This document shows positions 462-18,001 of a stretch of 18,552 bases of DNA, in pieces (within the stretch, counting starts at the first letter, position 1; the number at the start of each line of letters is the position of its first letter). The notes beneath the pieces are model-generated. The model worked only from the letters and a program-made list of their open reading frames with translations. It was not told the origin of the DNA and made no database searches. Location of the stretch: contig JALGVJ010000056.1 in the NCBI GenBank assembly GCA_029838195.1, positions 1 through 18,552 of the forward strand. The letters are read 5' to 3'. The position numbers were made by a program, and so were the translations under genes. Origin of the DNA: Promethearchaeota archaeon. GTDB lineage: Archaea > Asgardarchaeota > Lokiarchaeia > Sigyniarchaeales > SOKP01.

Positions 462-884
462 TTATAGGGGTTCTTTTTGGAGAAAATAGATCCTATTAGA
501 GGCACATTTAGGACATACGGGTTGTTTTTCTGCTTGTTTATTAGCAGAGGCCATTTCGTCTTCCCATTCTGCTCCACATTTCAAGCATCCATATCCCACG
601 AAACCTTTTTTATAGAATATTTCTCCGCCATGCACGCGAATGGGTTTTCCTTCCATTAAAGCTTGGGTGGTTTTTTTATGGGCTCTTTCGAGGATTCGGG
701 AAAAGGTAGGTTGAGAGATCCCCATTTTTTCAGCCGCCTCTTTTTGATTTAGATCGAGATAATGCTTTAATCTCATGGCTTCGAATTCAGCGACGGTAAG
801 AATAACAGAATTGTCGATAATATCATTAAAATAAAAGTTTCTTGGGGTTTCTTTTACCCAGCGCCGGCGAACACGTCTTCCCAT
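462..884 (-). CDS. DUF134/UPF0251 family DNA-binding protein with C-terminal Zn/Fe ribbon
   Basis: MGRRVRRRWV start; LTVAEFEAMRLKHYLDLNQKEAAEKMGISQPTFSRILERAHKK HTH typical of DUF134; C-terminal CLKC...CPKC. ATG at 884 preferred over TTG at 887. Confidence 0.85.
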   Translation of the reverse strand: MGRRVRRRWVKETPRNFYFNDIIDNSVILTVAEFEAMRLKHYLDLNQKEAAEKMGISQPTFSRILERAHKKTTQALMEGKPIRVHGGEIFYKKGFVGYGCLKCGAEWEDEMASANKQAEKQPVCPKCASNRIYFLQKEPL

Positions 885-1051
885 CAAGAATCACATGCAT
901 GAAATTGAATAAATTTTTTTTACTATATATTCAAAAAAAATAAATAAAAAAAGATTAATGATTCTGAGAATACTCTTTGCTTGCCATGAACATGATTTTA
1001 GTTGGTTCTCACCGGTGTATTCAAGGGGGAGCATTGAGAAGCGAATATCAA

Positions 1052-2113: not shown

Positions 2114-3418
2114 TTAATGAGTGGCACAAGAAACACAAGGATCAAAACATCTAATGATTTTCTGTGATTCTTCTTTAATCATATTGAGATCTCCCGTTTT
2201 TTCATACAATTCTTTAGAAACGTTGGTAATCATGGTATCAATGAGTGGTAGATTAAATTCTGTAGCTATAAATAATTTAACTTCTTTAATTATTTTATGT
2301 TCATCAACCTTATAATGATGAATCAATAACCCTCTTGGTGCTTCAAGCACACCTATTCCTTCATTTTTTTTTAGTTTCTTGCAAGATTCAAGGGGTATAT
2401 TTTCATTTAGTACAGGATTTTGAAGATATAATTGAGAAAATTTTACTTCTTTTAACATTTCCATTAATCGAATAATATTTGCAAAGAGAATGTTATTCTT
2501 CCACGTGTCATTAAAAAAACTTAAATAATCAGGAATACCAATAACTACGGAGTTTTCAATTAAATTATTCCTTGCCATCGGTCCTACCAATACAGGATTT
2601 TCTTTATCAAATAAGATATCAAAACCTCGCGTGTAGGGGGTTTTAGTGAAATAAGTGAAGTAATTTTGAGGATGAAAATCGATTGGATCATTATTGAATT
2701 TTTTAATCCTTAAAATCCCATTATATCTATTGTAAGATCCATAATCATGCAAGCTTATCATACTTGTTGGAGGCAATTTATATGCTTCAGGAGGATGTTT
2801 GCTAGAAAATAATTCTACCGTTTTATCTAAGATCCATTCCAAGTTATTTGATGCAATATCCATGTATTTTTGCGCAAGTTTTATTTTCTTGCTTGAAGCT
2901 TTATAAAGGACTCCTCCTGGTATAGGCGTGATTAAATGAATTGACCGCCCACCGAATATTTTATCTAATTGATTTCCGATATTAACTGCTTCTAAAAATT
3001 TATTTGTATAATCAGGAAATTCTTTAAGTATCTCAAAAGGATTTAAAATTCGGTTTTTTATCCCCAAAATCAGTAATAAGTCGGGAAATGCTTGAAAAAT
3101 ATAATGCATGCCATGTGATTTTAACAATTCCCCCGTTAATAATAATTTCCTAAGAACAACGTGCCTTTCATGAAGTTCCGTACCAAACATATCTTCAATG
3201 GCTTTGCAACTTGCAATGGATTGGGACGCATGACATAACCCACAAATACGCGAAACTATTTTGGGTATTTCTAAAAGTGGTTTTCCCACGAGAAAAGATT
3301 CAAATCCTCTATAGATAGGTAAATCAAAGATAACGCGATTTACTTCATCATCCTTGAGATAAATCTTCACGTTTCCATGACCTTCAATTCTTGTACATGT
3401 TTCAACAACTTTAATCAT
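2114..3418 (-). CDS. mvhA: [NiFe]-hydrogenase large subunit, group 3 (MvhA-like), atypical: CxxCxxxQ and no C-terminal extension
   Basis: TRIEGHG, RGFE, RICGLC, GGRSIH..PGG, VGPMAR, EAPRGLLIHHY, DPCVSCATH-stop. ATG at 3418 has GGTGA upstream and overlaps the small-subunit stop, so it is preferred over 3430. Confidence 0.88.
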   Translation of the reverse strand: MIKVVETCTRIEGHGNVKIYLKDDEVNRVIFDLPIYRGFESFLVGKPLLEIPKIVSRICGLCHASQSIASCKAIEDMFGTELHERHVVLRKLLLTGELLKSHGMHYIFQAFPDLLLILGIKNRILNPFEILKEFPDYTNKFLEAVNIGNQLDKIFGGRSIHLITPIPGGVLYKASSKKIKLAQKYMDIASNNLEWILDKTVELFSSKHPPEAYKLPPTSMISLHDYGSYNRYNGILRIKKFNNDPIDFHPQNYFTYFTKTPYTRGFDILFDKENPVLVGPMARNNLIENSVVIGIPDYLSFFNDTWKNNILFANIIRLMEMLKEVKFSQLYLQNPVLNENIPLESCKKLKKNEGIGVLEAPRGLLIHHYKVDEHKIIKEVKLFIATEFNLPLIDTMITNVSKELYEKTGDLNMIKEESQKIIRCFDPCVSCATH

Positions 3419-4184
3419 TATAAATATCACCTAATAATTTTGGTTTTGAAAATCGATAAAAAAGGCCTCTATTTTTTGTCAAGTTTTCAGAAAGATTTAA
3501 TATACTCAAAAAATTAATGAGATTGGATGTAAATTCTTTTGAAACTGGTCCCATGCACCCCTCGCACGGCACACCACACTTAATGCATTCAAGGTCGCAC
3601 CCTTCACGCGTAATAGGTCCCAAGCATAATAATCCCCGTTTTAAAAAACATGTTGGCTCATTTTCAGTAACATTTACATTTAGATCTTCCAAGAAAGCCT
3701 CAATAATCTGGTATTCGTAATTCTTATCCATTTTATCTCTTAATGGACAAGTTGCACACAAATTTCTATTTCCTAATACAATTTCTTTCCCCTCAATTAA
3801 ATGAATAATACTATTTCCTAATAATTGAGAAGGAGGAGGGCATCCTGGAATTATTCCGTTGATTTCAACATAAGTAGATAAAGGATCTGCTTGTTTTTGA
3901 TTGGATAAACTTAAAATTCCTCCAAATGCGGCACAAGTACCTAATGCGTATAATTTTTTTGCATGATGTCGAATCTTTTTTAAAATAGAAACTTGCGTCT
4001 CCTCCGATATACATCCCTCTATTAAAGCAATATCACAATCTTTAATTTTAGTTTCATCCATAATGAAAGGAGAATAAGTAAGCGAGATTTTTTCTAAGAA
4101 TTGAGAAAAAATATCTAAGCAAATAAGTGCTGAGATGCACCCGCTGCAAGATGTTAGTGATGTGATGAGAACCTTAGGCATCAT
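3411..4184 (-). CDS. mvhG: [NiFe]-hydrogenase small Fe-S subunit (MvhG-like)
   Basis: SCSGC, IEG, GTCAAFGGI, IPGCPP, CATC, CFLKRGLLCLGPITREGC...CGVPCEGCMGP; GAGGAGGAG RBS; overlaps both neighbouring genes. Confidence 0.88.
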   Translation of the reverse strand: MMPKVLITSLTSCSGCISALICLDIFSQFLEKISLTYSPFIMDETKIKDCDIALIEGCISEETQVSILKKIRHHAKKLYALGTCAAFGGILSLSNQKQADPLSTYVEINGIIPGCPPPSQLLGNSIIHLIEGKEIVLGNRNLCATCPLRDKMDKNYEYQIIEAFLEDLNVNVTENEPTCFLKRGLLCLGPITREGCDLECIKCGVPCEGCMGPVSKEFTSNLINFLSILNLSENLTKNRGLFYRFSKPKLLGDIYND

Positions 4185-6723
4185 ATTTTATCTCCTCCTC
4201 CAATTGTTCATAAAAATCATTTATAACTTTAGCAAAGATATTGCCTTCCACCGCGTTCATTTGTCTTAAAAGAATACGATTTTTGTACCTTTCTCCCAAT
4301 ATTTCTTTTAATAATTTAATCTTTTTACCTATTTTTTCCACCCCATCTATATATCTACACGCCGAACGCCGACATCCAACGATTAATACACCATCAAAAC
4401 CAGCCTCTAAAGATCTCAAGATGAAATGGGTATCCACCCTTCCCGTACAAGGTACCTTAATAATAAAAACATTTGGATGATACCATAATTTTTTATATCC
4501 AGCATCATCTGCTGCAGCATATCCGCAGGATTTACAGCAAAAAGCGATGATTTTTGGTCGGGATTTATATTTAGAAAAAATATCTATTGAACTTATTATT
4601 TTAGAGGAGGTATCTATATTCATCTCTAGAGCATTCGTGGGACAAATTGAAACGCATGTTCCACATCCCTTGCATTTGAATTTGTCCAAATTAATCTTGT
4701 CATGATCCATTGTAATCGCATTATATGGACATGAAACCACGCAAAGACCACATAACCCACATTTTTCCTCTTCTATTTCAATTCCACTAAATTCTGCATC
4801 TAAAAAATCTTGAGATAAAAGAGCAATGATTTTAAGGGCTGCCTGATTTGCCGATGCCTCCGTACTATGATAATCTAAAGGGCCGAGCACGCTTCCAATT
4901 CCGTATATTCCCGAGGCGAGAGTTTCTTTACTCATGAATCCATCATCATTTAGAGTAAAATCCATGATTTTTCGAAAAGATTTAAGATCTTTATTCGGAA
5001 CCATATTAGTATTCAATATAATTAAATCACTCTGATACTCTCCCTCATCAGTTTTTATAATTTTTTCATTATAGCGTTCAATAATCTCTAATTGGTTAAC
5101 GTAATGTACTCGTGAATCTATAGGCGTTAAATAAAAATTGCGAGTACTCTCCAGCTTGTTTATTTCATAAAATATATTGATTTTCGCATCAGGGAGCCTC
5201 CCAGAAATGCTGTTCATATATTTTAGCACTAAAATATCATTAAATCGGGATGAGCCTTTCTTTCCCCCCACTCCTTGTATAATAGATATGGATTTAGGAG
5301 GCTTTTTATCCGATAGTTTGATTATCTGACCTTCGGTGGGACCATCTGAAGCCAAAAGACGTTCAAATTCCCATGAAGTAATAATATCATTGAGAGGATC
5401 ATGTTTATAGGTTTCTAAATCTAAGGGAAACTCTGCACCTATAGCAATTACTTTGGCACCAACATTAATTTTAAATTTTTCTTCCTTCTGATCCAAGTTT
5501 ATGGCTTTATTAATACATGCTCGTTCACAGATTCGGCATTTAAGACAATTCTTTATATCTTCTTCATCGATTAGAGGCACATAGGGATAGGAATGAATAA
5601 AGGGAATATAAATAACTTTTCGATTAGATAATCCAAATTCATATTGATCAGGTTTCTCAATTGAACAAATATTCATGCAACTCCCACAACCAGTACATTT
5701 TTTCTTATCCACGTAGCGCGGTTTTTTCAAGAGATAAATGGAGAAATTTCCTACTTCTCCCGTGATATTCGTTACAACGGTATTGGTATAGATTTTAATA
5801 TTTTTTTCTTTTGCCAATTCAGCAATCAATTCTGAGATAAAACAGATAGAGCAATCCCCCATTTCATGAATTCTATTCCAGCGAGCTACTTTGCCTCCTA
5901 ACGTGGGAGATTTCTCAATGAGGTGGACTTCTATCCCTGCCCTGGATAAATCCAGAGCCAAAATGATTCCGGCAATGCCACCTCCAATTATGGCACAGCT
6001 TTTCTGAATTTCTACTCTTTTAATTTTAACACTTTTTTGTAAGACTACTCTTTCTACGGCAGCTTCTATTAAAAGTTTAGCTTTTTCTAATATTTTTAAC
6101 GGATCTCTTTTTTTTACATCGTAATGATGTACCCATGCGCATTGCTCACGGATGTTAGCTATTTCAATATTCACGCTATCAATAACATCCTTGAATATTC
6201 TTTCAAAAAGTACTTGATGGGTTTTGGGGGAGCACGCTACTATGACAATCTTGTTTAGATAGTTATCTTTAACCCATTGTGAAATTTCATCAATATTTTT
6301 CTGTTGACAAAGATTTTTAAATATTTTAACAGAAATGACATGGTTTAATTTACTAACATAATTTTCTAAAAGCTCTACATTAATTGCTTTAGAAATTTCG
6401 GTATTGCAATTACAGATGATAACGCCGACTCGATTTATTTCACTTCCCTTAGAAGGTATATATTCATCAATATCTTCTCCCGAAAGGATCCGTTTATTGA
6501 GGCTCAAGATTTTTAATATTCTTTTACCATCTTCCGTGAGAAAATAGTGCTTGTTGTCTTTATTAATCAAGGAGCCCAATTTTTTTAAATGAAAGTTTAA
6601 CTGGCCCGTAGAGTCAACTCCCAATTTTTCCATTAAATCTGAATAAGAAATATATCCCTCTTTCTCTAAATACTGCAAAATTTTCCGGCGAAAAGGATGG
6701 GATAATACCGAATATATATCCAA
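4174..6723 (-). CDS. hdrA: Winged-HTH (ArsR-like) - HdrA - MvhD triple fusion
   Basis: aa ~1-80: LSHPFRRKILQYL...YSDLMEKLGVDSTGQLNFHLKKL...YFLTEDG (wHTH). HdrA: VGVIICNC, VACSP, ANIREQCAWVH, IIGGGIAG (FAD), DCSIC, four CxxCxxCxxxC ferredoxin motifs. C-terminal MvhD: AFCCKSCGYAAAD, VPCTGRVD, DGVLIVGC...C. TTG start with AAGGAG upstream. Confidence 0.9.
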   Translation of the reverse strand: MDIYSVLSHPFRRKILQYLEKEGYISYSDLMEKLGVDSTGQLNFHLKKLGSLINKDNKHYFLTEDGKRILKILSLNKRILSGEDIDEYIPSKGSEINRVGVIICNCNTEISKAINVELLENYVSKLNHVISVKIFKNLCQQKNIDEISQWVKDNYLNKIVIVACSPKTHQVLFERIFKDVIDSVNIEIANIREQCAWVHHYDVKKRDPLKILEKAKLLIEAAVERVVLQKSVKIKRVEIQKSCAIIGGGIAGIILALDLSRAGIEVHLIEKSPTLGGKVARWNRIHEMGDCSICFISELIAELAKEKNIKIYTNTVVTNITGEVGNFSIYLLKKPRYVDKKKCTGCGSCMNICSIEKPDQYEFGLSNRKVIYIPFIHSYPYVPLIDEEDIKNCLKCRICERACINKAINLDQKEEKFKINVGAKVIAIGAEFPLDLETYKHDPLNDIITSWEFERLLASDGPTEGQIIKLSDKKPPKSISIIQGVGGKKGSSRFNDILVLKYMNSISGRLPDAKINIFYEINKLESTRNFYLTPIDSRVHYVNQLEIIERYNEKIIKTDEGEYQSDLIILNTNMVPNKDLKSFRKIMDFTLNDDGFMSKETLASGIYGIGSVLGPLDYHSTEASANQAALKIIALLSQDFLDAEFSGIEIEEEKCGLCGLCVVSCPYNAITMDHDKINLDKFKCKGCGTCVSICPTNALEMNIDTSSKIISSIDIFSKYKSRPKIIAFCCKSCGYAAADDAGYKKLWYHPNVFIIKVPCTGRVDTHFILRSLEAGFDGVLIVGCRRSACRYIDGVEKIGKKIKLLKEILGERYKNRILLRQMNAVEGNIFAKVINDFYEQLEEEIKYDA

Positions 6724-6808: not shown

Positions 6809-6826
6809 TGATAAACATTATTATCA
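6809..6826. promoter_or_regulatory. Palindromic operator TGATAA-N6-TTATCA upstream of the wHTH-hdrA-mvhD gene
   Basis: TGATAA acatta TTATCA, a perfect 6-bp inverted repeat ~85 nt upstream of the TTG at 6723; the same motif occurs at 6942 and 12031. Confidence 0.7.
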
Positions 6827-6941
6827 AAAAATAAAAATCTTTTTATTGAAAATGGTCACCTAGATTATTGATTTCAAAAAACTGATAGTAGAAATCGAAA
6901 TAGCATCATTTAAGACAAGTCATCTGATTTTTATTGGAGAT

Positions 6942-6983
6942 TGACAATTCTTCTTGTCATAATAATCATAATTTTTCTTATCA
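6942..6983. promoter_or_regulatory. Tandem operators upstream of the divergent operon
   Basis: TGACAA ttcttc TTGTCA (6942-6959, perfect) and TCATAA tttttc TTATCA (6966-6983, one mismatch), offset by 24 bp. Confidence 0.7.
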
Positions 6984-7068: not shown

Positions 7069-7686
7069 ATGGAAGTATTAGAATTAAAGCCTTTAAAAAA
7101 TAAAAAGATAACAGCTTATTTCTTCTCAAAACAAAGTTCAGCAGATCTTAATGAAATCAATTCAGATGAGCTAAAAAAATTTCTTAAAGAAAAAAATGTG
7201 GACTTTGCAACCATAGATTTCGATGTAGATATGAAAGATTTTAACAATAATGAATTTGCGAAGACTCTTATCAAGTGTAATATCCCATATTATCAAGTAG
7301 ATATCCCTGAATTCGTAATGGGTTATTTATATGAGGAAATCATTGAAAAGGAAGAGTTAGTTGAGGAATTGATCCAAGAATATCAATCCATGGAAGATAA
7401 GGAGTCTTATAAGGGATTGAGTCTAAAAAATTGGATCGACATGCTTAATCTTGAAATACAAGAAAAGGAAAATTTTCTTAGTTTACGGTTGAGACCCCAA
7501 TGGATCGTGAAAAAAATGTTAGATCTTGCGAAAAAAATAGATAAACAGGTAGTTACATTTATTCATTTTGTCAAAAAGGATATATGCGAAGATATTTGTT
7601 CTCAAGTAATTGAATGCTTAAGGGAGATGGGAGTTAAGGTAATAGATTATAATAAAATTCATACAATTAAAAATATAATTTTATAA
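7069..7686 (+). CDS. Hypothetical protein, degenerate paralog of 7714..8457 (possible TraB/Tiki-like fold with coiled-coil insert)
   Basis: 205 aa ORF with GAGGTGG RBS; shares EVLELKPLK, DFA, NIPx...DI and RxxW...LxLAK with the next gene. Confidence 0.7.
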   Translation: MEVLELKPLKNKKITAYFFSKQSSADLNEINSDELKKFLKEKNVDFATIDFDVDMKDFNNNEFAKTLIKCNIPYYQVDIPEFVMGYLYEEIIEKEELVEELIQEYQSMEDKESYKGLSLKNWIDMLNLEIQEKENFLSLRLRPQWIVKKMLDLAKKIDKQVVTFIHFVKKDICEDICSQVIECLREMGVKVIDYNKIHTIKNIIL

Positions 7687-7713
7687 TAAAATTAAAAAGG
7701 AGGTATGATAAAA

Positions 7714-8457
7714 ATGCCAGAAGTTTTAGAATTAAAGCCTTTAAAAGAGAAGGTTTTGAAATTAATCCTCATAGAAAGTGAATTTCCCATTGATTGGTGG
7801 TTTGAGGTACCTGAAGAATTAAAGGAGGATTTGGTATGGAATTTGCATTTGATTTCAAGAGAGTATCTAGATTTAATCGAAAATCTTATAGAAAAATATA
7901 AGCCTGATTTTGCCTTAGAAGAACGTCCAAATTATCTTAATCGTAATGAAAAGGATCCCTTGAAAGTTTTATTTCAAGTTAAAAATATTCCATTTAAACA
8001 TGCAGATATTGATGAAAATGCAGAAGACTATCTTTCTGCTGCTTTAGAGGAACATAGGCAAATATTAGAGAAATTAGAGGAGAGAATAGCAGAAATAATC
8101 AAAAAAAATGGAAAAGCTCCCACAGAAGATGAGGAATTTCAGCGATTGCTCATATGGAAAGAATATTTAAAAAAGGATTATGAGGATCAAGAAGATGAAG
8201 TAAGATATAAGGTTCGAGAAGCTTGGATGATGATGAATATTTTAAATTTGGCTAAAGATGTGGGAAAAAAAGTGGAAAGCAAAAAATTAAAGGGATTTTT
8301 CATCTGTGATAAGAGACATTTTGATGGATTAGATGCCTTGGCAGAATCTCTGGGAGTTGAAACGGAAAAAATTAAGATCAAAAAGAGCATAAAAACGGAA
8401 GAGATTGAAAAAGTCATGGAAAAAGAGATTGAAGTAAAAATCCGAGATAAAGAATAA
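7714..8457 (+). CDS. Hypothetical protein, possible TraB/Tiki (EreA/ChaN-like) fold
   Basis: GGAGGT abuts ATG 7705, so ATG 7714 (MPEVLELKPLK) is the better start. PDFALEE, ADID, REAWM and ICDKRHFDGL resemble the TraB-type PDxVxxE / RxxxM / GxxHxxG pattern. Fold call is tentative. Confidence 0.65.
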   Translation: MPEVLELKPLKEKVLKLILIESEFPIDWWFEVPEELKEDLVWNLHLISREYLDLIENLIEKYKPDFALEERPNYLNRNEKDPLKVLFQVKNIPFKHADIDENAEDYLSAALEEHRQILEKLEERIAEIIKKNGKAPTEDEEFQRLLIWKEYLKKDYEDQEDEVRYKVREAWMMMNILNLAKDVGKKVESKKLKGFFICDKRHFDGLDALAESLGVETEKIKIKKSIKTEEIEKVMEKEIEVKIRDKE

Positions 8458-8522
8458 ATTAGAGTTTTTTCTTAATTTTCAATTTTATCATGAAATTTTA
8501 AATTATTGAGGTGAATGTAAAA

Positions 8523-9512
8523 ATGGCAAAATATAATGAAGTAGAACAAATTTTAGGAAGAAAATCAATTTTAGAGCTAACACCAATCGTGATTAAAAAA
8601 AAGGATACCTCCGATAAGATCTGTTATTTTCTCGATACTGATGATGTAGCCTCCCCATTTGACATAAACATGGCATACGATGCGGGGTTTGATGTAGTAG
8701 TGCCCATTAGTAAAATGAAGGCTGAATTTGTTCCTAAAATAGTACAAGATGCAATTTTTTCTCGAAAACCAGGAGCGCCTACCACATTTTTCATAGGAGG
8801 ATCTGATGTTAAAGAAGGTGAAAAAATTGCGAAAAATGTCGTTAAATCGTTAGTTCCACCATTCGAATGCCCGGTCATTATTGATCCACGAGGATCTCAC
8901 ACGACCGCCTCAGCAGTAGTAGCCATGACCTTAGATATCGCAAAAAGAAAGCATGGAATAACTGATGTGAAAAATAAAAAAGTGGTAATTTTTGGAGCGG
9001 GGCCTGTAGGAAGAATTGCTGCAATTTTGGCAGCAAAAATTCATTTAAATACTTTTCTCGTTGAAACTTGGGAAAAAACCAGTGAGGAATTCATTATCAA
9101 TTTAGCTAAAGAATTAACGGAAGAAGCGGGAGATGGTTCCTCGCAAATTAAAGGCGTATTCGCACCTAGTTTAGAGGAAAGATTTCAAATCTCTCAAGAT
9201 GCTGATTTCATATGGTCGCTAGCAGCAGCAGGCGTCGAAATTTTACCTGAGGAATTAATGGCCAAATTAAAAGGTAAAAAGCTGGTTGTAGATATTAATT
9301 TGGTTCCCCCATATGGCATTGGAGGCATAAAACCAAAGTATAAAAATGAGGAAATTTATCCCGGAATTTTCGCAATAGGAGCTCTAAGCTTAGGAAGGCT
9401 AAAAGCAAACTCCGAAGCCGCCATCTTGAAAGAAGCGGCTAACACTAAAGGTCTAAAAATATTTGATTATAATGTCGCTTTTGAAATTGCGAAAGAATTA
9501 TTGAAAAAATAA
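8523..9512 (+). CDS. NAD(P)-dependent methylene-tetrahydromethanopterin/tetrahydrofolate dehydrogenase (MtdA/MtdB/MtdC family)
   Basis: SPFDINMAYDAGFD, VQDAIFSR, FIGGSD, PPFE..DPRGSHTTASA, GAGPVG, DINLVPPYGIGG are characteristic of the family. ATG 8523 lies downstream of GAGGTG. Confidence 0.85.
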   Translation: MAKYNEVEQILGRKSILELTPIVIKKKDTSDKICYFLDTDDVASPFDINMAYDAGFDVVVPISKMKAEFVPKIVQDAIFSRKPGAPTTFFIGGSDVKEGEKIAKNVVKSLVPPFECPVIIDPRGSHTTASAVVAMTLDIAKRKHGITDVKNKKVVIFGAGPVGRIAAILAAKIHLNTFLVETWEKTSEEFIINLAKELTEEAGDGSSQIKGVFAPSLEERFQISQDADFIWSLAAAGVEILPEELMAKLKGKKLVVDINLVPPYGIGGIKPKYKNEEIYPGIFAIGALSLGRLKANSEAAILKEAANTKGLKIFDYNVAFEIAKELLKK

Positions 9513-12030: not shown

Positions 12031-12072
12031 TGACAAATTGAATTATCAGAATGATCAAAATTCTTCTTATCA
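12031..12072. promoter_or_regulatory. Tandem operators upstream of the 86-aa gene
   Basis: TGACAA attgaa TTATCA (12031-12048) and TCAAAA ttcttc TTATCA (12055-12072), with the same 24-bp offset as 6942/6966. Confidence 0.65.
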
Positions 12073-12150: not shown

Positions 12151-12411
12151 ATGCAAGCTTTTGCTCATGTCCCCGAGGAAAGGGAAAAAATAACTTCATA
12201 TAAAAGTATGATAGAAACAAAAAATAAAGAATCTAAGAAACAATTCTTAAAAGAATTGGCAAAAGGATATTTAGAAGCTGAAAAAATGAAAGTAATGGAA
12301 ACATTTAGAATGTTTGAAAAAGAATATGAAAGTCTTGAGAATAAAGACTCCTTTAAAGCTCAATACCTTGAATCTTTTATTTTTGAGCTTAAAACAGAGC
12401 TCCATCTCTAA
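12151..12411 (+). CDS. Small helical protein homologous to the coiled-coil segment of 7069..7686
   Basis: AGGTGG RBS and T-tract after the stop; 17/50 ungapped identities (hand count) with EFVMGYL...LNLEI of 7069..7686. Confidence 0.75.
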   Translation: MQAFAHVPEEREKITSYKSMIETKNKESKKQFLKELAKGYLEAEKMKVMETFRMFEKEYESLENKDSFKAQYLESFIFELKTELHL

Positions 12412-12871: not shown

Positions 12872-14200
12872 TTAAGGTTTTAAATCGTTTTCTGATTTCA
12901 TAACCGACTCGGATTCTTTTCTGGAAAGTTTAAATTCATAATCAGTCGGTGATAATAAGAAAAATCCTACCAGCCCCAGATTAGAAATGAGTGCCATGAA
13001 GAGAAATACCATGAGATAAGAAGCCGTCAGTGATAAAATTACCCCTGTTAATGCAAGTCCGATTACCCCTCCAAGGTTCGCAAAAGCGTTCGTGAGACTA
13101 TAATAAGTGGAATCCATTGCAGGATGCTGCTTGGAAATCTCCGTCACCACTGCTGCATAACTACTATGGCGCCAGCCGATAGCTAAGCCAATTAGTGAGG
13201 CAAAAAACAATAAAACACCCCAAATGGTCGGAATTAACATCAATAAAAGAGATATGGTAGTAATCGCATAAGCTAAATACACGCTTAGCCTCCTACTTTT
13301 CTTGTCAGCCACTTGCCCTCCCACAATTGCTCCAATAACTATTCCAACGGATATAATCATGGTCATGTTTCCTTGGTATAAATATACAATGGGATCTGTT
13401 GTAGTCAAAGAAAGGCTGGTTCCAATAGAGGAAATCAACCCAATTTGAATGAGCAAGAATAAGGTAACAAATAAAATCACCACGGAATCCACTATGGCCG
13501 CAAATAATGAAAAAATGTACGTCTTAAAATCGCGTTTATTATTAAACATCTCTTTTAAATGAATCATTAACATTACTTCGGGATATTGTTTCGGCTCTTT
13601 AATGAAAATGGTTAATAAAGAGCTCGCAATCATTAAAATCCCAATGATAATGAAAAGAGATGGCACATTCAACCCACCATAGACGACCAAAATGGCCAAA
13701 ACTGGACCTCCAGCAATTGCTCCTACGCTTCTTAGCCCCCAATTAAAACCTGACGCCCGACCTAGTTTCTCTTTCGGGCAAATATCTAAAAGCAAACCGT
13801 CGATAATAGTGTCTGAGAATGCAACTCCGGTGAAAATTAGAATGCCCATGACGGTAAAAACGGTAATAGCGTTCTCTTTATTGAATAAATTTGGGGTTCC
13901 AAGTAATGCCCACATGACACCGGCCATGGACATCATACCAATGATCCAAGGGCGCCGTCGTCCAATTTTTTTCGATCCTACTTTATCTCCGATAATTCCA
14001 AAAAACACTTTAAAAATCCACGGGAGACCAATTATAGATCCTAAAAAAGCCAACGCAGCAGCATCCAGCACGCCGATATATTGAATGAGATAAATGGGAA
14101 TGATAACAGCAAATAAACTCTGATCAATGCCCTGAAATAAGTAATTGGAAGAGAAAATTGCGATATAATAATTTTTAAACTCTACTTGCTCTTTTTCCAA
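12872..14200 (-). CDS. MFS transporter (AmpG/BT1-like motifs), paralog 1
   Basis: ~12 hydrophobic segments; PWIFKVFFGIIGDK...GRRRPW, SDTIIDG, GGQVADKKSRR; TTG start. Confidence 0.88.
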   Translation of the reverse strand: MEKEQVEFKNYYIAIFSSNYLFQGIDQSLFAVIIPIYLIQYIGVLDAAALAFLGSIIGLPWIFKVFFGIIGDKVGSKKIGRRRPWIIGMMSMAGVMWALLGTPNLFNKENAITVFTVMGILIFTGVAFSDTIIDGLLLDICPKEKLGRASGFNWGLRSVGAIAGGPVLAILVVYGGLNVPSLFIIIGILMIASSLLTIFIKEPKQYPEVMLMIHLKEMFNNKRDFKTYIFSLFAAIVDSVVILFVTLFLLIQIGLISSIGTSLSLTTTDPIVYLYQGNMTMIISVGIVIGAIVGGQVADKKSRRLSVYLAYAITTISLLLMLIPTIWGVLLFFASLIGLAIGWRHSSYAAVVTEISKQHPAMDSTYYSLTNAFANLGGVIGLALTGVILSLTASYLMVFLFMALISNLGLVGFFLLSPTDYEFKLSRKESESVMKSENDLKP

Positions 14201-14600: not shown

Positions 14601-15941
14601 ATGAATAAAACAAATGTTGAATATAAATCGCTTTATACGGGTGTTTTCTCCTTGAATTACTTCGTGCAAGGAATAAACCAGTCCATTTTCACGACCGTTG
14701 TCCCCATTTATATCTTGAACTTACTGGGTGTAGTAGATACCGTTGCCATTGCTTCCATGGGCTCGATCATCATGATTCCCTTTGTCCTCAAGCTTATATT
14801 TGGACTGATCTCCGATAAAGTAGAAATCGGGAAGCTTGGACGAAGAAAGCCCTGGATCATTGGTGCTACGAATTTTGCGGGAATCATGTGGTTAATTTTA
14901 CCTCCAATTCTATTTTCAAATCCTTGGGCCGCATATAGCATCTTTACACTTGTTGGATTTTTTGTCATGTTTGGTACGGCCTTCTCAGATACATCAATGG
15001 ATGGTTTTATCATGGATATTTGCCCTAAAAACTTGTTGGGACGCGTGACAGGAGCCGTATGGGGTTTTAGGAGCATGGGAATCATTACAGGGGGATTGGT
15101 CATCTTATTACTAATTAATATCATTCCCGTTGAGACGATTTTCATTTTTTTAGGAATCATTACTATCATATTTGGATGGTTAATCTTATTGATTAAACAT
15201 GGAGAAACCATGAAAGACAGGGAAATTCTTTCGAATCTGAAAATAATATTTAAGCGAAAAGAAAATTGGAAGGTTTTTTTCTTTTCGATGTTCATGGCAG
15301 TTGTGGATGGAGTCATTTTCCTTTTTATTGCATTATATATTTTAATTCGAGCCGGGCTTGTTAATCCCGTGGGCGCCACCATAGAGATCTTGGATGAAGA
15401 TTTGAATCTATATTATCCGCAAGCTTTCATCACTTTAATCGTTAGTTTAGGAGTGTTAGCGGGTGCTTTCATTGGAGGGCGGGTTGCTGATAAAGTATCG
15501 AGAAGAGTAGCGACGTTTTCATCTTTCATTCTTACCACAAGCGCTTTATTATTGCTATTAATCCCCGTGCCTTCGAATCTAGTTTTCATTTTATTAATCT
15601 TCACGTTTATCGCGGGCTCATCAAGCGGCTGGAGCAATTCTGCATTTTCTTCGATTTCGGGAGAATATGCACAGCAATATCCGGAGGCTCCGGGAACTTA
15701 TTTATCACTATGTACTTCATTCATCAATTTTGGCACCTTGATGGGGCTATCTTTTACAGCACAGATTTTTAGTACGGCTTCAACGCTTTTCATAGATGTA
15801 TTGGCAATATATGCGACAGTTTTTATTTTCATGGCCTTTCTTTCCAACATTGCTATTATACCTTTCTTGACCTTAGATAAACATCAATACGAATACAAGC
15901 TAAGGGAGGAAAGTTCCATAAAGGAAATGTTAAAGCCTTAA
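14601..15941 (+). CDS. MFS transporter, paralog 2
   Basis: PFVLKLIFGLISDK...GRRKPW, SDTSMDG, GGRVADKVSRR. Confidence 0.88.
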   Translation: MNKTNVEYKSLYTGVFSLNYFVQGINQSIFTTVVPIYILNLLGVVDTVAIASMGSIIMIPFVLKLIFGLISDKVEIGKLGRRKPWIIGATNFAGIMWLILPPILFSNPWAAYSIFTLVGFFVMFGTAFSDTSMDGFIMDICPKNLLGRVTGAVWGFRSMGIITGGLVILLLINIIPVETIFIFLGIITIIFGWLILLIKHGETMKDREILSNLKIIFKRKENWKVFFFSMFMAVVDGVIFLFIALYILIRAGLVNPVGATIEILDEDLNLYYPQAFITLIVSLGVLAGAFIGGRVADKVSRRVATFSSFILTTSALLLLLIPVPSNLVFILLIFTFIAGSSSGWSNSAFSSISGEYAQQYPEAPGTYLSLCTSFINFGTLMGLSFTAQIFSTASTLFIDVLAIYATVFIFMAFLSNIAIIPFLTLDKHQYEYKLREESSIKEMLKP

Positions 15942-16314: not shown

Positions 16315-16662
16315 ATGGGATATAAAATTTTTATTCTGAAAGATGAAAATGGTGCGAGAGTTGATATGGAAATCTTTTTTTCTCTTCCGCTTGAATTAGT
16401 TCTTGCTCCCTTCGTAGATGAATTGCATGAGTTACATGAATGGAAACCGGACATGACCAGAACGATGCTATTTTTACCCATTTCAATGATGGAGGCCATC
16501 CTATATGCCAGATTTCATGAGAACATGTCCAATCGGGCATTTAGAATTATTTTTATGATAATTCATGACATTTTTAAAAAATCAGAGGAAAAAAAAAACT
16601 TAAATTCAATCCATATAAATGTAGATCATCGAGTCAAAATTGAATATTATTTGGGAACGTGA
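16315..16662 (+). CDS. Hypothetical protein or transposase N-terminal remnant
   Basis: 115 aa ORF whose stop lies 1 nt before the MFS3 ATG. FLPISMMEAILYARFHENMSNRAF loosely resembles IS5/IS1182-type N-terminal helices. Confidence 0.35.
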   Translation: MGYKIFILKDENGARVDMEIFFSLPLELVLAPFVDELHELHEWKPDMTRTMLFLPISMMEAILYARFHENMSNRAFRIIFMIIHDIFKKSEEKKNLNSIHINVDHRVKIEYYLGT

Positions 16663-16663
16663 A

Positions 16664-18001
16664 ATGATACGAGAGGAATACGAATATAAAAATTCTTATA
16701 CCTTGATATTTGGATTGCTTTATTTAACACAAGGGATAATTCATTCTACGTTTGCTAGCTTGGTGCCGATCTACATCTTAACTCTCCTTGGGTCAGTCGA
16801 AGCCGCTGATGTAGCTAATTTAGGTACGATTGTAATGCTCCCGTTTATTTGCAAATTAATCATGGGGATATTAACGGACAAGATTGGTACTCAGAAACTC
16901 GGTAGACGCAAGCCTTGGATTATTGGTTCAACACTATTTGCCGGCATTAGTTGGTTTTTCATTCCTTCCTTAGTTTTGGCAAATCCGCAAGCTGCATTTT
17001 TAATTTTTAGTCTGGCGGGATTAATCATCATGTCGGGCGTGGCAATGAGCGATACGGCGATGGATGGATATATTCTCGATACATGTCCTCCATGGAAATT
17101 GGGAACCGTGAATGGAACGTGTTGGGGCGCTCGTTCGCTTGGAGTCATTGTAGGGGGGCCTGCGATTTTACTATTTGTAGGGGTAACTGATCAAATTTTA
17201 GTGGTATTTTATTTATTGGGCATTTTAACGATTTTATTTGGGCTTATAACCCTATGCATAGAAACACCAAAAGAATACGAGAAAATGCAAATTGTAGAAC
17301 ATTTAAAAATAATTGTAAAATCCAGGGAAAACTGGAAAGTGTTTGCCTTCTCATTTTTCATGGCAATAACTGACGGTGTAGTATTCATTTTTCTGGCGTT
17401 ATACGTATTGATTAGAGCAGGATTGGTGAATCCAATAGGAGCAACCATAAATTTATTGGATGAAGATGTGAACTTATTCGAGCCGCAAGCATTCATTACT
17501 CTTATTACAGGGTTGGGGATTTTAATTGGGTCCATAGTTAATGGAAAAATAGCAGATGTAAAATCGAGGCGCATGGCAGTAGGGGGAGCATTGATATTTA
17601 AATCCGTTTCGTTACTCATAATTCTTTTACCTGTACCAATAATAGTACTATTAATTTTAGCATTATTAGTGGGCATATCAAGTGGCTTTAGCACGGCGTC
17701 ATATTTTGCTGTCGCAACGCAATATTCAAAGAAATATCCGGAAAGCACCAGCACGTATTTCTCGATTAGCTTATCATTCATCAATTTGGGCACGATCTTA
17801 GGCATTTCATTAACGGGCATGATATTTAGGAACATCACGACGTTTACACAAGATACCTTTTTAATATATGCAGTGGTGTTCATCTCGATAATAATTTTGA
17901 ACGATCTTGCCATTTTTCCATTTTTATTGATGAAAAGAGAGAATTATGAAGTTCCAAAAGGAGAACAAGGCTCCGAATTTCGAGAGTTAATTAAACCATA
18001 A
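16664..18001 (+). CDS. MFS transporter, paralog 3
   Basis: PFICKLIMGILTDK...GRRKPW, SDTAMDG; shares ALYxLIRAGLVNPxGATI..LDEDxNL..PQAFITLI with paralog 2. ATG 16664 preferred by alignment with the paralogs. Confidence 0.88.
   Translation: MIREEYEYKNSYTLIFGLLYLTQGIIHSTFASLVPIYILTLLGSVEAADVANLGTIVMLPFICKLIMGILTDKIGTQKLGRRKPWIIGSTLFAGISWFFIPSLVLANPQAAFLIFSLAGLIIMSGVAMSDTAMDGYILDTCPPWKLGTVNGTCWGARSLGVIVGGPAILLFVGVTDQILVVFYLLGILTILFGLITLCIETPKEYEKMQIVEHLKIIVKSRENWKVFAFSFFMAITDGVVFIFLALYVLIRAGLVNPIGATINLLDEDVNLFEPQAFITLITGLGILIGSIVNGKIADVKSRRMAVGGALIFKSVSLLIILLPVPIIVLLILALLVGISSGFSTASYFAVATQYSKKYPESTSTYFSISLSFINLGTILGISLTGMIFRNITTFTQDTFLIYAVVFISIIILNDLAIFPFLLMKRENYEVPKGEQGSEFRELIKP

Follow-up and report, generated by a model that had tools for sequence, protein, structure and literature searches.

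Among the closest described counterparts of the genes considered here is MvhAGD-HdrABC, an electron-bifurcating complex of methanogens. We analyzed an 18,552-nucleotide (nt) stretch of DNA (below, the window) from a Promethearchaeota archaeon of the class Lokiarchaeia (contig JALGVJ010000056.1 of assembly GCA_029838195.1), in which an HdrA-MvhD protein carries an N-terminal winged helix-turn-helix (wHTH) domain and its gene is followed by genes for a [NiFe]-hydrogenase. The exchange of hydrogen (H2) is believed to sustain Asgard archaea, yet to our knowledge nothing is known of how they sense or regulate it.

Several described systems link redox enzymes or other enzymes to transcription. PutA, a flavoenzyme of Escherichia coli and Salmonella, has a DNA-binding domain at its N-terminus, acts as the repressor of its own operon and comes off the DNA when its flavin adenine dinucleotide (FAD) is reduced, and Rex, which carries an N-terminal wHTH on a dinucleotide-binding domain, binds a palindrome as a dimer and senses redox poise. 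The regulatory hydrogenase HoxBC/HupUV, a member of group 2b, senses H2 and, together with HoxJ-HoxA, signals via a histidine kinase and a response regulator. In archaea, the riboflavin kinase/regulator RbkR is described as having a wHTH-like domain and binding operators of its own gene and of pathway genes, tuned by the ligands of the enzyme (PMC5397151).

The protein encoded in the window shares with the methanogen complexes (PDB 5ODC, 8RVU and 9SW2) and with HdrA2-type fusions (NF040770) a full-length alignment of the enzyme body, the FAD and cysteine motifs and the adjacent MvhG and MvhA. It differs from MvhAGD-HdrABC in 97 additional N-terminal residues, formed by the wHTH and a tether, the end of which corresponds to the start of the solved HdrA chains; in addition, its operon has no hdrB or hdrC, neither of which was found by Pfam anywhere in the window, and MvhA ends at the ligand histidine. 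The ArsR/SmtB repressors (1Y0U, NolR 4OMY, CadC 1U2W) have the same fold as the wHTH, including the recognition helix, the wing and the C-terminal amphipathic helix, but are small stand-alone dimers sensing metals or thiols, whereas here the fold is the N-terminal module of an enzyme of 849 amino acids (aa). PutA, unlike this archaeal protein, is bacterial and uses a ribbon-helix-helix domain, Rex has no catalytic activity, and neither is wired to a hydrogenase or to iron-sulfur (Fe-S) clusters. HoxBC/HupUV resembles the present system in being a [NiFe]-hydrogenase that is tied to transcription control and has a large subunit without a C-terminal maturation peptide; here, however, the hydrogenase is Mvh-like, the DNA-binding domain is located on its direct electron-transfer partner, and the absence of the peptide is not conserved in relatives from Helarchaeota and Sigynarchaeum. 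RbkR is likewise an archaeal enzyme fused to a wHTH-like domain with an operator upstream of its own gene, but, in the same description (PMC5397151), its enzyme is a small kinase and the signal consists of cytidine triphosphate and flavin mononucleotide, unlike the large redox subunit considered here, which contains flavin and Fe-S clusters and belongs to a hydrogenase complex.

We propose, with a probability of roughly 0.6, that the fusion protein acts as a bifunctional trigger enzyme: it would repress both its own operon and a conserved operon in the divergent direction, and its release from the DNA would be set by the reduction state of the enzyme body.

An uninterrupted wHTH-HdrA-MvhD fusion

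The sequence-only reading of the window had claimed that an archaeal ArsR-like wHTH is joined to the start of HdrA by a linker of about 15 residues, with no stop codon or frameshift at the junction. The continuity of the junction was confirmed, since the open reading frame (ORF) at 4174-6723 on the minus strand is a single frame of 849 aa without interruption and includes a cofactor-complete HdrA-MvhD body. The frame cannot extend beyond the TTG at 6723 because of an in-frame TGA 12 nt upstream; a GGAG motif is located 13 nt 5' of the TTG. In 32 related loci the start codon of the orthologues occupies the same position, being ATG in most cases and GTG or TTG in the rest, and is followed by GAT ATA TAT. 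This conservation supports the TTG as the probable true start, so that the N-terminal domain is taken to be translated. Positions 6430-6723 encode aa 1-98, which comprise the wHTH, helix 4 and the linker. Thus, an intact enzyme domain and a DNA-binding-type domain occur in one polypeptide, as in trigger enzymes.

The wHTH assignment was supported by three kinds of evidence. First, aa 2-71 match the Pfam family DUF7347 (PF24038) over profile positions 3-75 of 77 (E-value 6.2e-13; 49.2 bits, cut-off 27.6), and the domain also matches the helix-turn-helix (HTH) family HTH_24 (26.1 bits, cut-off 21.9). Second, the sole significant solved sequence relative of aa 1-100 is an ArsR-type repressor of Archaeoglobus fulgidus (1Y0U; E-value 1.3e-3, 33-34% identity over about 66 residues); rows for FHA and MntR in the same PDB sequence search had E-values above 0.4 and were disregarded. 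Third, an AlphaFold2 (AF2) model of the N-terminal region, built on an alignment of 33 sequences, has a mean predicted local distance difference test (pLDDT) score of 82.6, exceeding 90 over aa 10-70, and contains helices at 3-7, 10-22 and 27-34, a recognition helix at 39-52, a beta-hairpin wing at 53-62 and an amphipathic helix at 64-81, that is, all elements of a wHTH fold. When this model was compared with the PDB by Foldseek, it matched solely dimeric DNA-binding repressors, namely YodB, ArsR family members including A. fulgidus 1Y0U, PagR, NolR on DNA, AspA on DNA and CadC, with probability 1.0 and E-values of 3e-3 to 2e-2, which are expected for a domain of about 80 residues. A complex prediction with two copies of aa 1-88 scored 0.30 against a mark of 0.42 and gives no verdict on the dimer.

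The predicted linker needed revision. A linker is present, and is better described as the helix at 64-81 followed by a stretch of 16 residues (aa 82-97) of lower confidence: the mean pLDDT is 84 for aa 71-80, drops to 73 and then to 51 in the two blocks that follow, and is about 50-75 over the stretch itself.

The N-terminal 110 residues are conserved at least as well as aa 1-250 overall. Residues Y4, L7, H9, R12, G40, H45, L46, K55, Y60, G66 and G82 are invariant across the phylum, T39, L42, N43, K47 and K48 are kept in at least 90% of sequences, and the sequence of the recognition helix, TGQLNFHLKKL, is nearly invariant. No characterized member of DUF7347 and no mention of the family were found in the literature. 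The genome encodes two more DUF7347 domains. One is N-terminal to a protein with an ATP-cone and an NRDD-like (anaerobic ribonucleotide reductase) domain (contig C22, 98196-101423; ORF 1-1761 of that segment, minus strand), which is a putative further fusion of the enzyme-regulator style; the other forms the C-terminus of a 254-aa protein.

The same fusion was then sought in related genomes and proved to be widespread. A search of 5.8 billion proteins yielded more than 100 clusters (at 90% identity) of proteins of about 849 aa with PF24038, HdrA and FlpD, their source names being Prometh-, Loki-, Hod-, Thor-, Hermod-, Hel- and Odinarchaeota. In a six-frame search of 400 sampled genomes of the phylum, aa 1-250 were matched in full and without interruption in 118 genomes from at least nine families, while in the remaining genomes the match started only at about aa 90 and corresponded to unfused HdrA paralogues. 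The recurrence of the junction in over 100 independent assemblies makes it trustworthy without recourse to read coverage, and the fusion is real and under selection. Database entries of about 819 aa without PF24038 result from start-codon calls at Met31. A sister family, represented by large single-contig genomes, was matched over aa 91-250 only. Cultured Lokiarchaeia may lack the fusion, and for this reason it may have gone unremarked.

A complete enzyme body and the hydrogenase genes

Residues 98-843 match the HdrA2 model NF040770 with an E-value of 5e-178 over model positions 1-770 of 777. The score of 593.6 bits is below the cut-off of 1100, and that for NF041778 (372.7 bits) is below 1400, so that the body is a homolog rather than an equivalog. 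Chain 5ODC_A (HdrA) aligns to the body over chain residues 5-636 with an E-value of 1.9e-107, chain 5ODC_D (MvhD) aligns to the fusion protein with an E-value of 6e-23, and Pfam places FlpD/MvhD at aa 725-843. The FAD and cysteine motifs of 5ODC_A and of MvhD are kept, those seen in the alignment to 5ODC_A being CxC, ACSP, GGGxAG (FAD), DCSIC and four motifs of the CxxCxxC type. As HdrA aligns from chain residue 5 and these motifs are kept, the wHTH with its tether is simply added to the N-terminus of an enzyme that appears to work. The fusion, its fold and the integrity of the cofactor motifs are thus established in silico.

The adjacent large subunit retains the Ni-Fe ligand motifs RICGLC at the N-terminus and DPCVSCATH at the C-terminus, and with the adjacent small subunit and MvhD the locus has the composition of an Mvh-type (group 3c-like) hydrogenase. 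It contains the sole match to the [NiFe] large-subunit family PF00374 in this 4.5-Mb, 96.6%-complete genome, which argues for a working enzyme. In four related loci (L004-L007, with L006 from Helarchaeota and L007 from Sigynarchaeum), mvhG is also directly downstream of the fusion gene. The MvhA-like protein of the window ends exactly at the histidine of DPCVSCATH and hence has no C-terminal maturation peptide; the same holds for L004 and L005, while the orthologs in L006 and L007 carry a C-terminal extension. The genome has 13 copies of FlpD/MvhD, four of them with an in-frame TGA and thus candidate selenoproteins, and about 40 matches to the CCG domain (HdrB-like), with many CCG-domain genes outside the window.

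A conserved palindrome at the putative promoter of the fusion gene

The sequence-only reading had also anticipated a palindromic operator. Such a sequence, TGAYAA-N6-TTRTCA, was derived by eye from upstream regions of orthologs read side by side and was then tested with controls; a de novo count of perfectly symmetric palindromes of 5-7 nt in the 32 upstream regions gave AT-rich noise only. In the window, the pattern has four matches, against 0.51 expected (predicted operators A to D, Table 1). Operator A directly follows a TATA-like box on the promoter of the fusion gene, and the same arrangement is seen in relatives, where the promoters read TTTATATA, a gap of 2-4 nt and the palindrome.

In the complete genome, there are nine exact sites, three of them in the window, against one in the reversed control. 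Exact sites on four other contigs (C35, C57, C58 and C91) are inside ORFs and were treated as chance, as were those on two further contigs (C5 and C45) that adjoin unrelated genes and score below 17 bits. To avoid circularity, a position matrix was derived from 37 sites, all of them in other genomes, with the window left out. The three best positions of this matrix in the 4.5-Mb genome correspond to operators A, B and D (starts 6807, 6940 and 12029), with scores of 20.6-21.1 bits; the next best position scores 17.5, and none reaches 18 in the reversed genome. An operator at the promoter of the enzyme's own gene, characteristic of trigger enzymes, is therefore found here in silico.

The site is well conserved. 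Upstream of the operon in close loci it is exact in 29 of 32 cases and has at most one mismatch in 31 of 32, with no exact sites in the reversed control, and in distant loci (38-67% identity) a site with at most one mismatch occurs in 11 of 20. Several further distant loci keep GACAA-N6-TTGTC or scattered GACAA half-sites. In those loci where the site is about 1330 nt upstream, an FrhB-like gene opens the operon. Its product, of 385 aa, resembles FrhB/FdhB and has a ferredoxin domain at its N-terminus. In many relatives (L027-L050, e.g., 2352-3509 of L028, minus strand), this gene follows the operator and precedes wHTH-hdrA as the first of the operon; it is not present at this position in the window.

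A second conserved module consists of TTTGATAAGAAAAATT, about 10 nt and the palindrome; operators C and B represent it in the window, and the tandem module recurs in seven other loci. In addition, half-site-like repeats GATCAT ... TAATCA ... TAGTCA, about 10 base pairs (bp) apart, are located 15-45 nt 3' of the palindrome in most close relatives and are degenerate in the window. These repeats may serve as auxiliary binding sites.

The octamer TTTTTATT is the putative promoter TATA box of the fusion gene, and operator A would occupy the gap between this box and the expected start site. The archaeal repressors MDR1, LrpA and Phr block the recruitment of polymerase from a position between the TATA box and the start.

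Finally, sites were counted in genomes of the window's family. Those with the fusion (n = 91) contain 4.98 exact sites on average against 2.15 in the control, and those without the fusion (n = 43) contain 3.19 against 2.21. We regard this comparison as supportive, not decisive.

Table 1. Location of the fusion gene, its domains, predicted regulatory sites and neighboring genes in the window.
Feature	Position	Strand	Description	Evidence
wHTH-HdrA-MvhD fusion gene	4174..6723	-	849 aa, TTG start	ORF list, Pfam and NCBIfam matches
wHTH, DUF7347, ArsR-like	6511..6720	-	aa 2-71	Pfam match, genome search placing the domain at 6511-6720, AF2
Helix 4 and linker	6433..6510	-	amphipathic helix (to aa 81) and lower-confidence linker (aa 82-97), from wHTH to HdrA	AF2
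HdrA body and MvhD	4195..6432	-	HdrA aa 98 to ~720, MvhD aa 725-843	5ODC_A and 5ODC_D alignments; FlpD at 4195-4551
mvhG-like gene	3411..4184	-	[NiFe]-hydrogenase small subunit; start overlaps the end of the fusion gene	Pfam Oxidored_q6
mvhA-like gene	2114..3430	-	[NiFe]-hydrogenase large subunit	translation; MvhA 5ODC_F best solved relative, E 1.2e-51
TATA-like box	6830..6837	-	TTTTTATT; ends 3 nt before operator A	read from the sequence
Predicted operator A	6809..6826		TGATAATAATGTTTATCA (minus-strand reading); 86-103 nt 5' of the TTG	exact match; matrix 21.1, joint best in genome
Predicted operator B	6942..6959		TGACAATTCTTCTTGTCA; perfect 6-N6-6 palindrome in the divergent intergenic region	exact match; matrix 20.6, third in genome
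Predicted operator C	6966..6983		6 bp from operator B	one mismatch
Predicted operator D	12031..12048		TGACAAATTGAATTATCA; 103 nt 5' of the ORF at 12151-12411	exact match; matrix 21.1, joint best
Divergent conserved neighbors	7069..9512	+	two paralogues (7069-7686, 7705-8457) and an Mpt_N protein (8511-9512)	Pfam, paralogy, synteny
86-aa ORF	12151..12411	+	similar to the middle part of the 205-aa divergent protein (7069-7686)	similarity; synteny of relatives

Proposed mechanism and alternatives

The proposed trigger enzyme would work as follows. A complete HdrA-MvhD flavin and Fe-S subunit would partner the [NiFe]-hydrogenase MvhG/MvhA encoded in the same transcript, with the ArsR-like winged helix attached to its N-terminus via a flexible tether. 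A dimer of HdrA, as seen in the solved Mvh-Hdr complexes, would present two winged helices to TGAYAA-N6-TTRTCA, the half-sites of which are 12 bp (about 41 Å) apart; we infer that it is this domain which binds the operator. With operator A occupied, recruitment of RNA polymerase would be blocked and the wHTH-hdrA/mvhD-mvhG-mvhA operon repressed, repression being the sign of regulation that we infer from the position of the site. Operators B and C would bring the divergent conserved operon under the same control, and operator D the small ORF at 12151. By analogy with PutA, Rex and RbkR, the affinity for DNA would be set by the state of the enzyme body, the flavin and the Fe-S clusters of which would be reduced by H2 through MvhAG, so that redox state or H2 would be the controlling signal. 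The fusion enzyme probably also controls its own genes.

Several observations weigh against this proposal. The site is missing, at up to one mismatch, from nine of the 20 distant loci. The genomes compared for presence and absence of the fusion are related, so that the comparison overstates the significance, and a small excess of sites remains in genomes that have no fusion; the palindrome could belong to another factor. The pattern itself was derived by eye from these very promoters, which the matrix constructed without the window mitigates. Finally, the sequence gives no indication of how the effect of a redox change would cross the tether, itself a low-confidence part of the model, and arrive at the wHTH.

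A bolder version takes the whole MvhAG/wHTH-HdrA-MvhD complex as a one-component transducer from H2 to transcription: it would be located on the operators when oxidized, and electrons from H2, passing via MvhG and MvhD into the flavin of HdrA, would alter the dimer and make the winged helices release the DNA. We consider this version possible and hold it tentatively.

Alternatively, the wHTH may bind the operator with a signal other than redox state or H2, the free HdrA-MvhD that is not assembled with MvhGA or other partners repressing its own operon, either as a stoichiometry feedback or as constitutive autorepression. The presence of the operator on the gene's own promoter, the tiny regulon of about three excess sites per genome, as expected for autoregulation, and the tether, modelled at low confidence with no obvious allosteric path, all agree with such a feedback. 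On the other hand, sites are also found 5' of conserved neighbors that are not subunits (the divergent operon and the small ORF), and DNA-binding domains on redox enzymes elsewhere sense the ligand of the enzyme, as with RbkR and also PutA and Rex. We consider this explanation unlikely.

Still less probable is that the winged helix, rather than binding DNA sequence-specifically, mediates docking to a protein, to the nucleoid or to another complex, the palindrome belonging to a separate factor. Winged helices do have protein-protein roles in many archaeal and eukaryotic complexes, and DUF7347 offers no characterized member for comparison. However, all fold matches are DNA-binding repressors, several of them solved on DNA, and the recognition helix together with the basic residues R12, K47, K48 and K55 is invariant or nearly so across the phylum. 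Moreover, the palindrome tracks the promoter of the fusion gene over deep divergence and is rarer in genomes without the fusion, and in L004-L007 no other regulator conserved in synteny with the operon was found. A gene for an HTH protein of family DUF134 (462-887, minus strand) was considered as the regulator of the palindrome and rejected, since neither it nor the epimerase gene is syntenic in these four loci; its product combines the HTH with a C-terminal zinc ribbon.

That the fusion is an artefact, with two genes joined by misassembly or by a missed frameshift or stop, or with translation beginning at Met31 and leaving no intact wHTH, is effectively refuted: some database entries of about 819 aa do begin at the equivalent of Met31 and the start codon in this genome is TTG, but 118 genomes and more than 100 clusters show this frame equally unbroken, most orthologs have ATG at the position of this TTG, and in distant lineages residue 31 is leucine rather than methionine, with the preceding 30 residues conserved at the protein level.

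Neighboring genes and candidate regulon

The first two divergent genes encode hypothetical proteins that are paralogues (27% identity) and both begin with (M)EVLELKPLK; they match no Pfam family, and their relatives are in Asgard-only clusters. The third gene encodes an Mpt_N protein resembling methylene-tetrahydromethanopterin (H4MPT) dehydrogenase. In three families, one of them that of Sigynarchaeum, the divergent genes keep their synteny with the fusion gene, and they are a probable co-regulated unit.

The 86-aa ORF has no Pfam match. Its relatives are found in the upstream region of the fusion gene in L005, L007, L008, L024 and L075, the one in L005 starting about 40 nt 3' of an operator site, and by this synteny the ORF is a probable member of the regulon.

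Downstream of the locus, three paralogous transporters of the major facilitator superfamily, with weak matches to BT1 or acetyl-CoA transporter-like families, are clustered at 12872-14200 (minus strand), 14601-15941 (plus strand) and 16640-18001 (plus strand).

Implications

No description of a DNA-binding HdrA was found in the literature searched on HdrA, Asgard archaea and hydrogenases. The parts are known (ArsR-like wHTH, HdrA, MvhD and MvhGA), as is the principle of a self-regulating enzyme, and it is their combination that we did not find described. In this genome, a DNA-binding-type domain is located on the electron-transfer partner of the sole Mvh-type hydrogenase detected, and a nearly genome-unique predicted operator is located on its own promoter. 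This defines a concrete and testable circuit consisting of a defined protein, an 18-bp site and a small regulon.

With the proposed function, the short list of trigger enzymes would gain a large redox enzyme complex, and one of the rare cases from archaea. If the complex does act as a transducer, the availability of H2 would directly set the expression of the hydrogenase and of the neighboring one-carbon (H4MPT-branch) operon. No earlier hydrogenase would have had such a physical link to DNA, and this one would occur in a lineage whose H2 syntrophy is central to models of the origin of eukaryotes.

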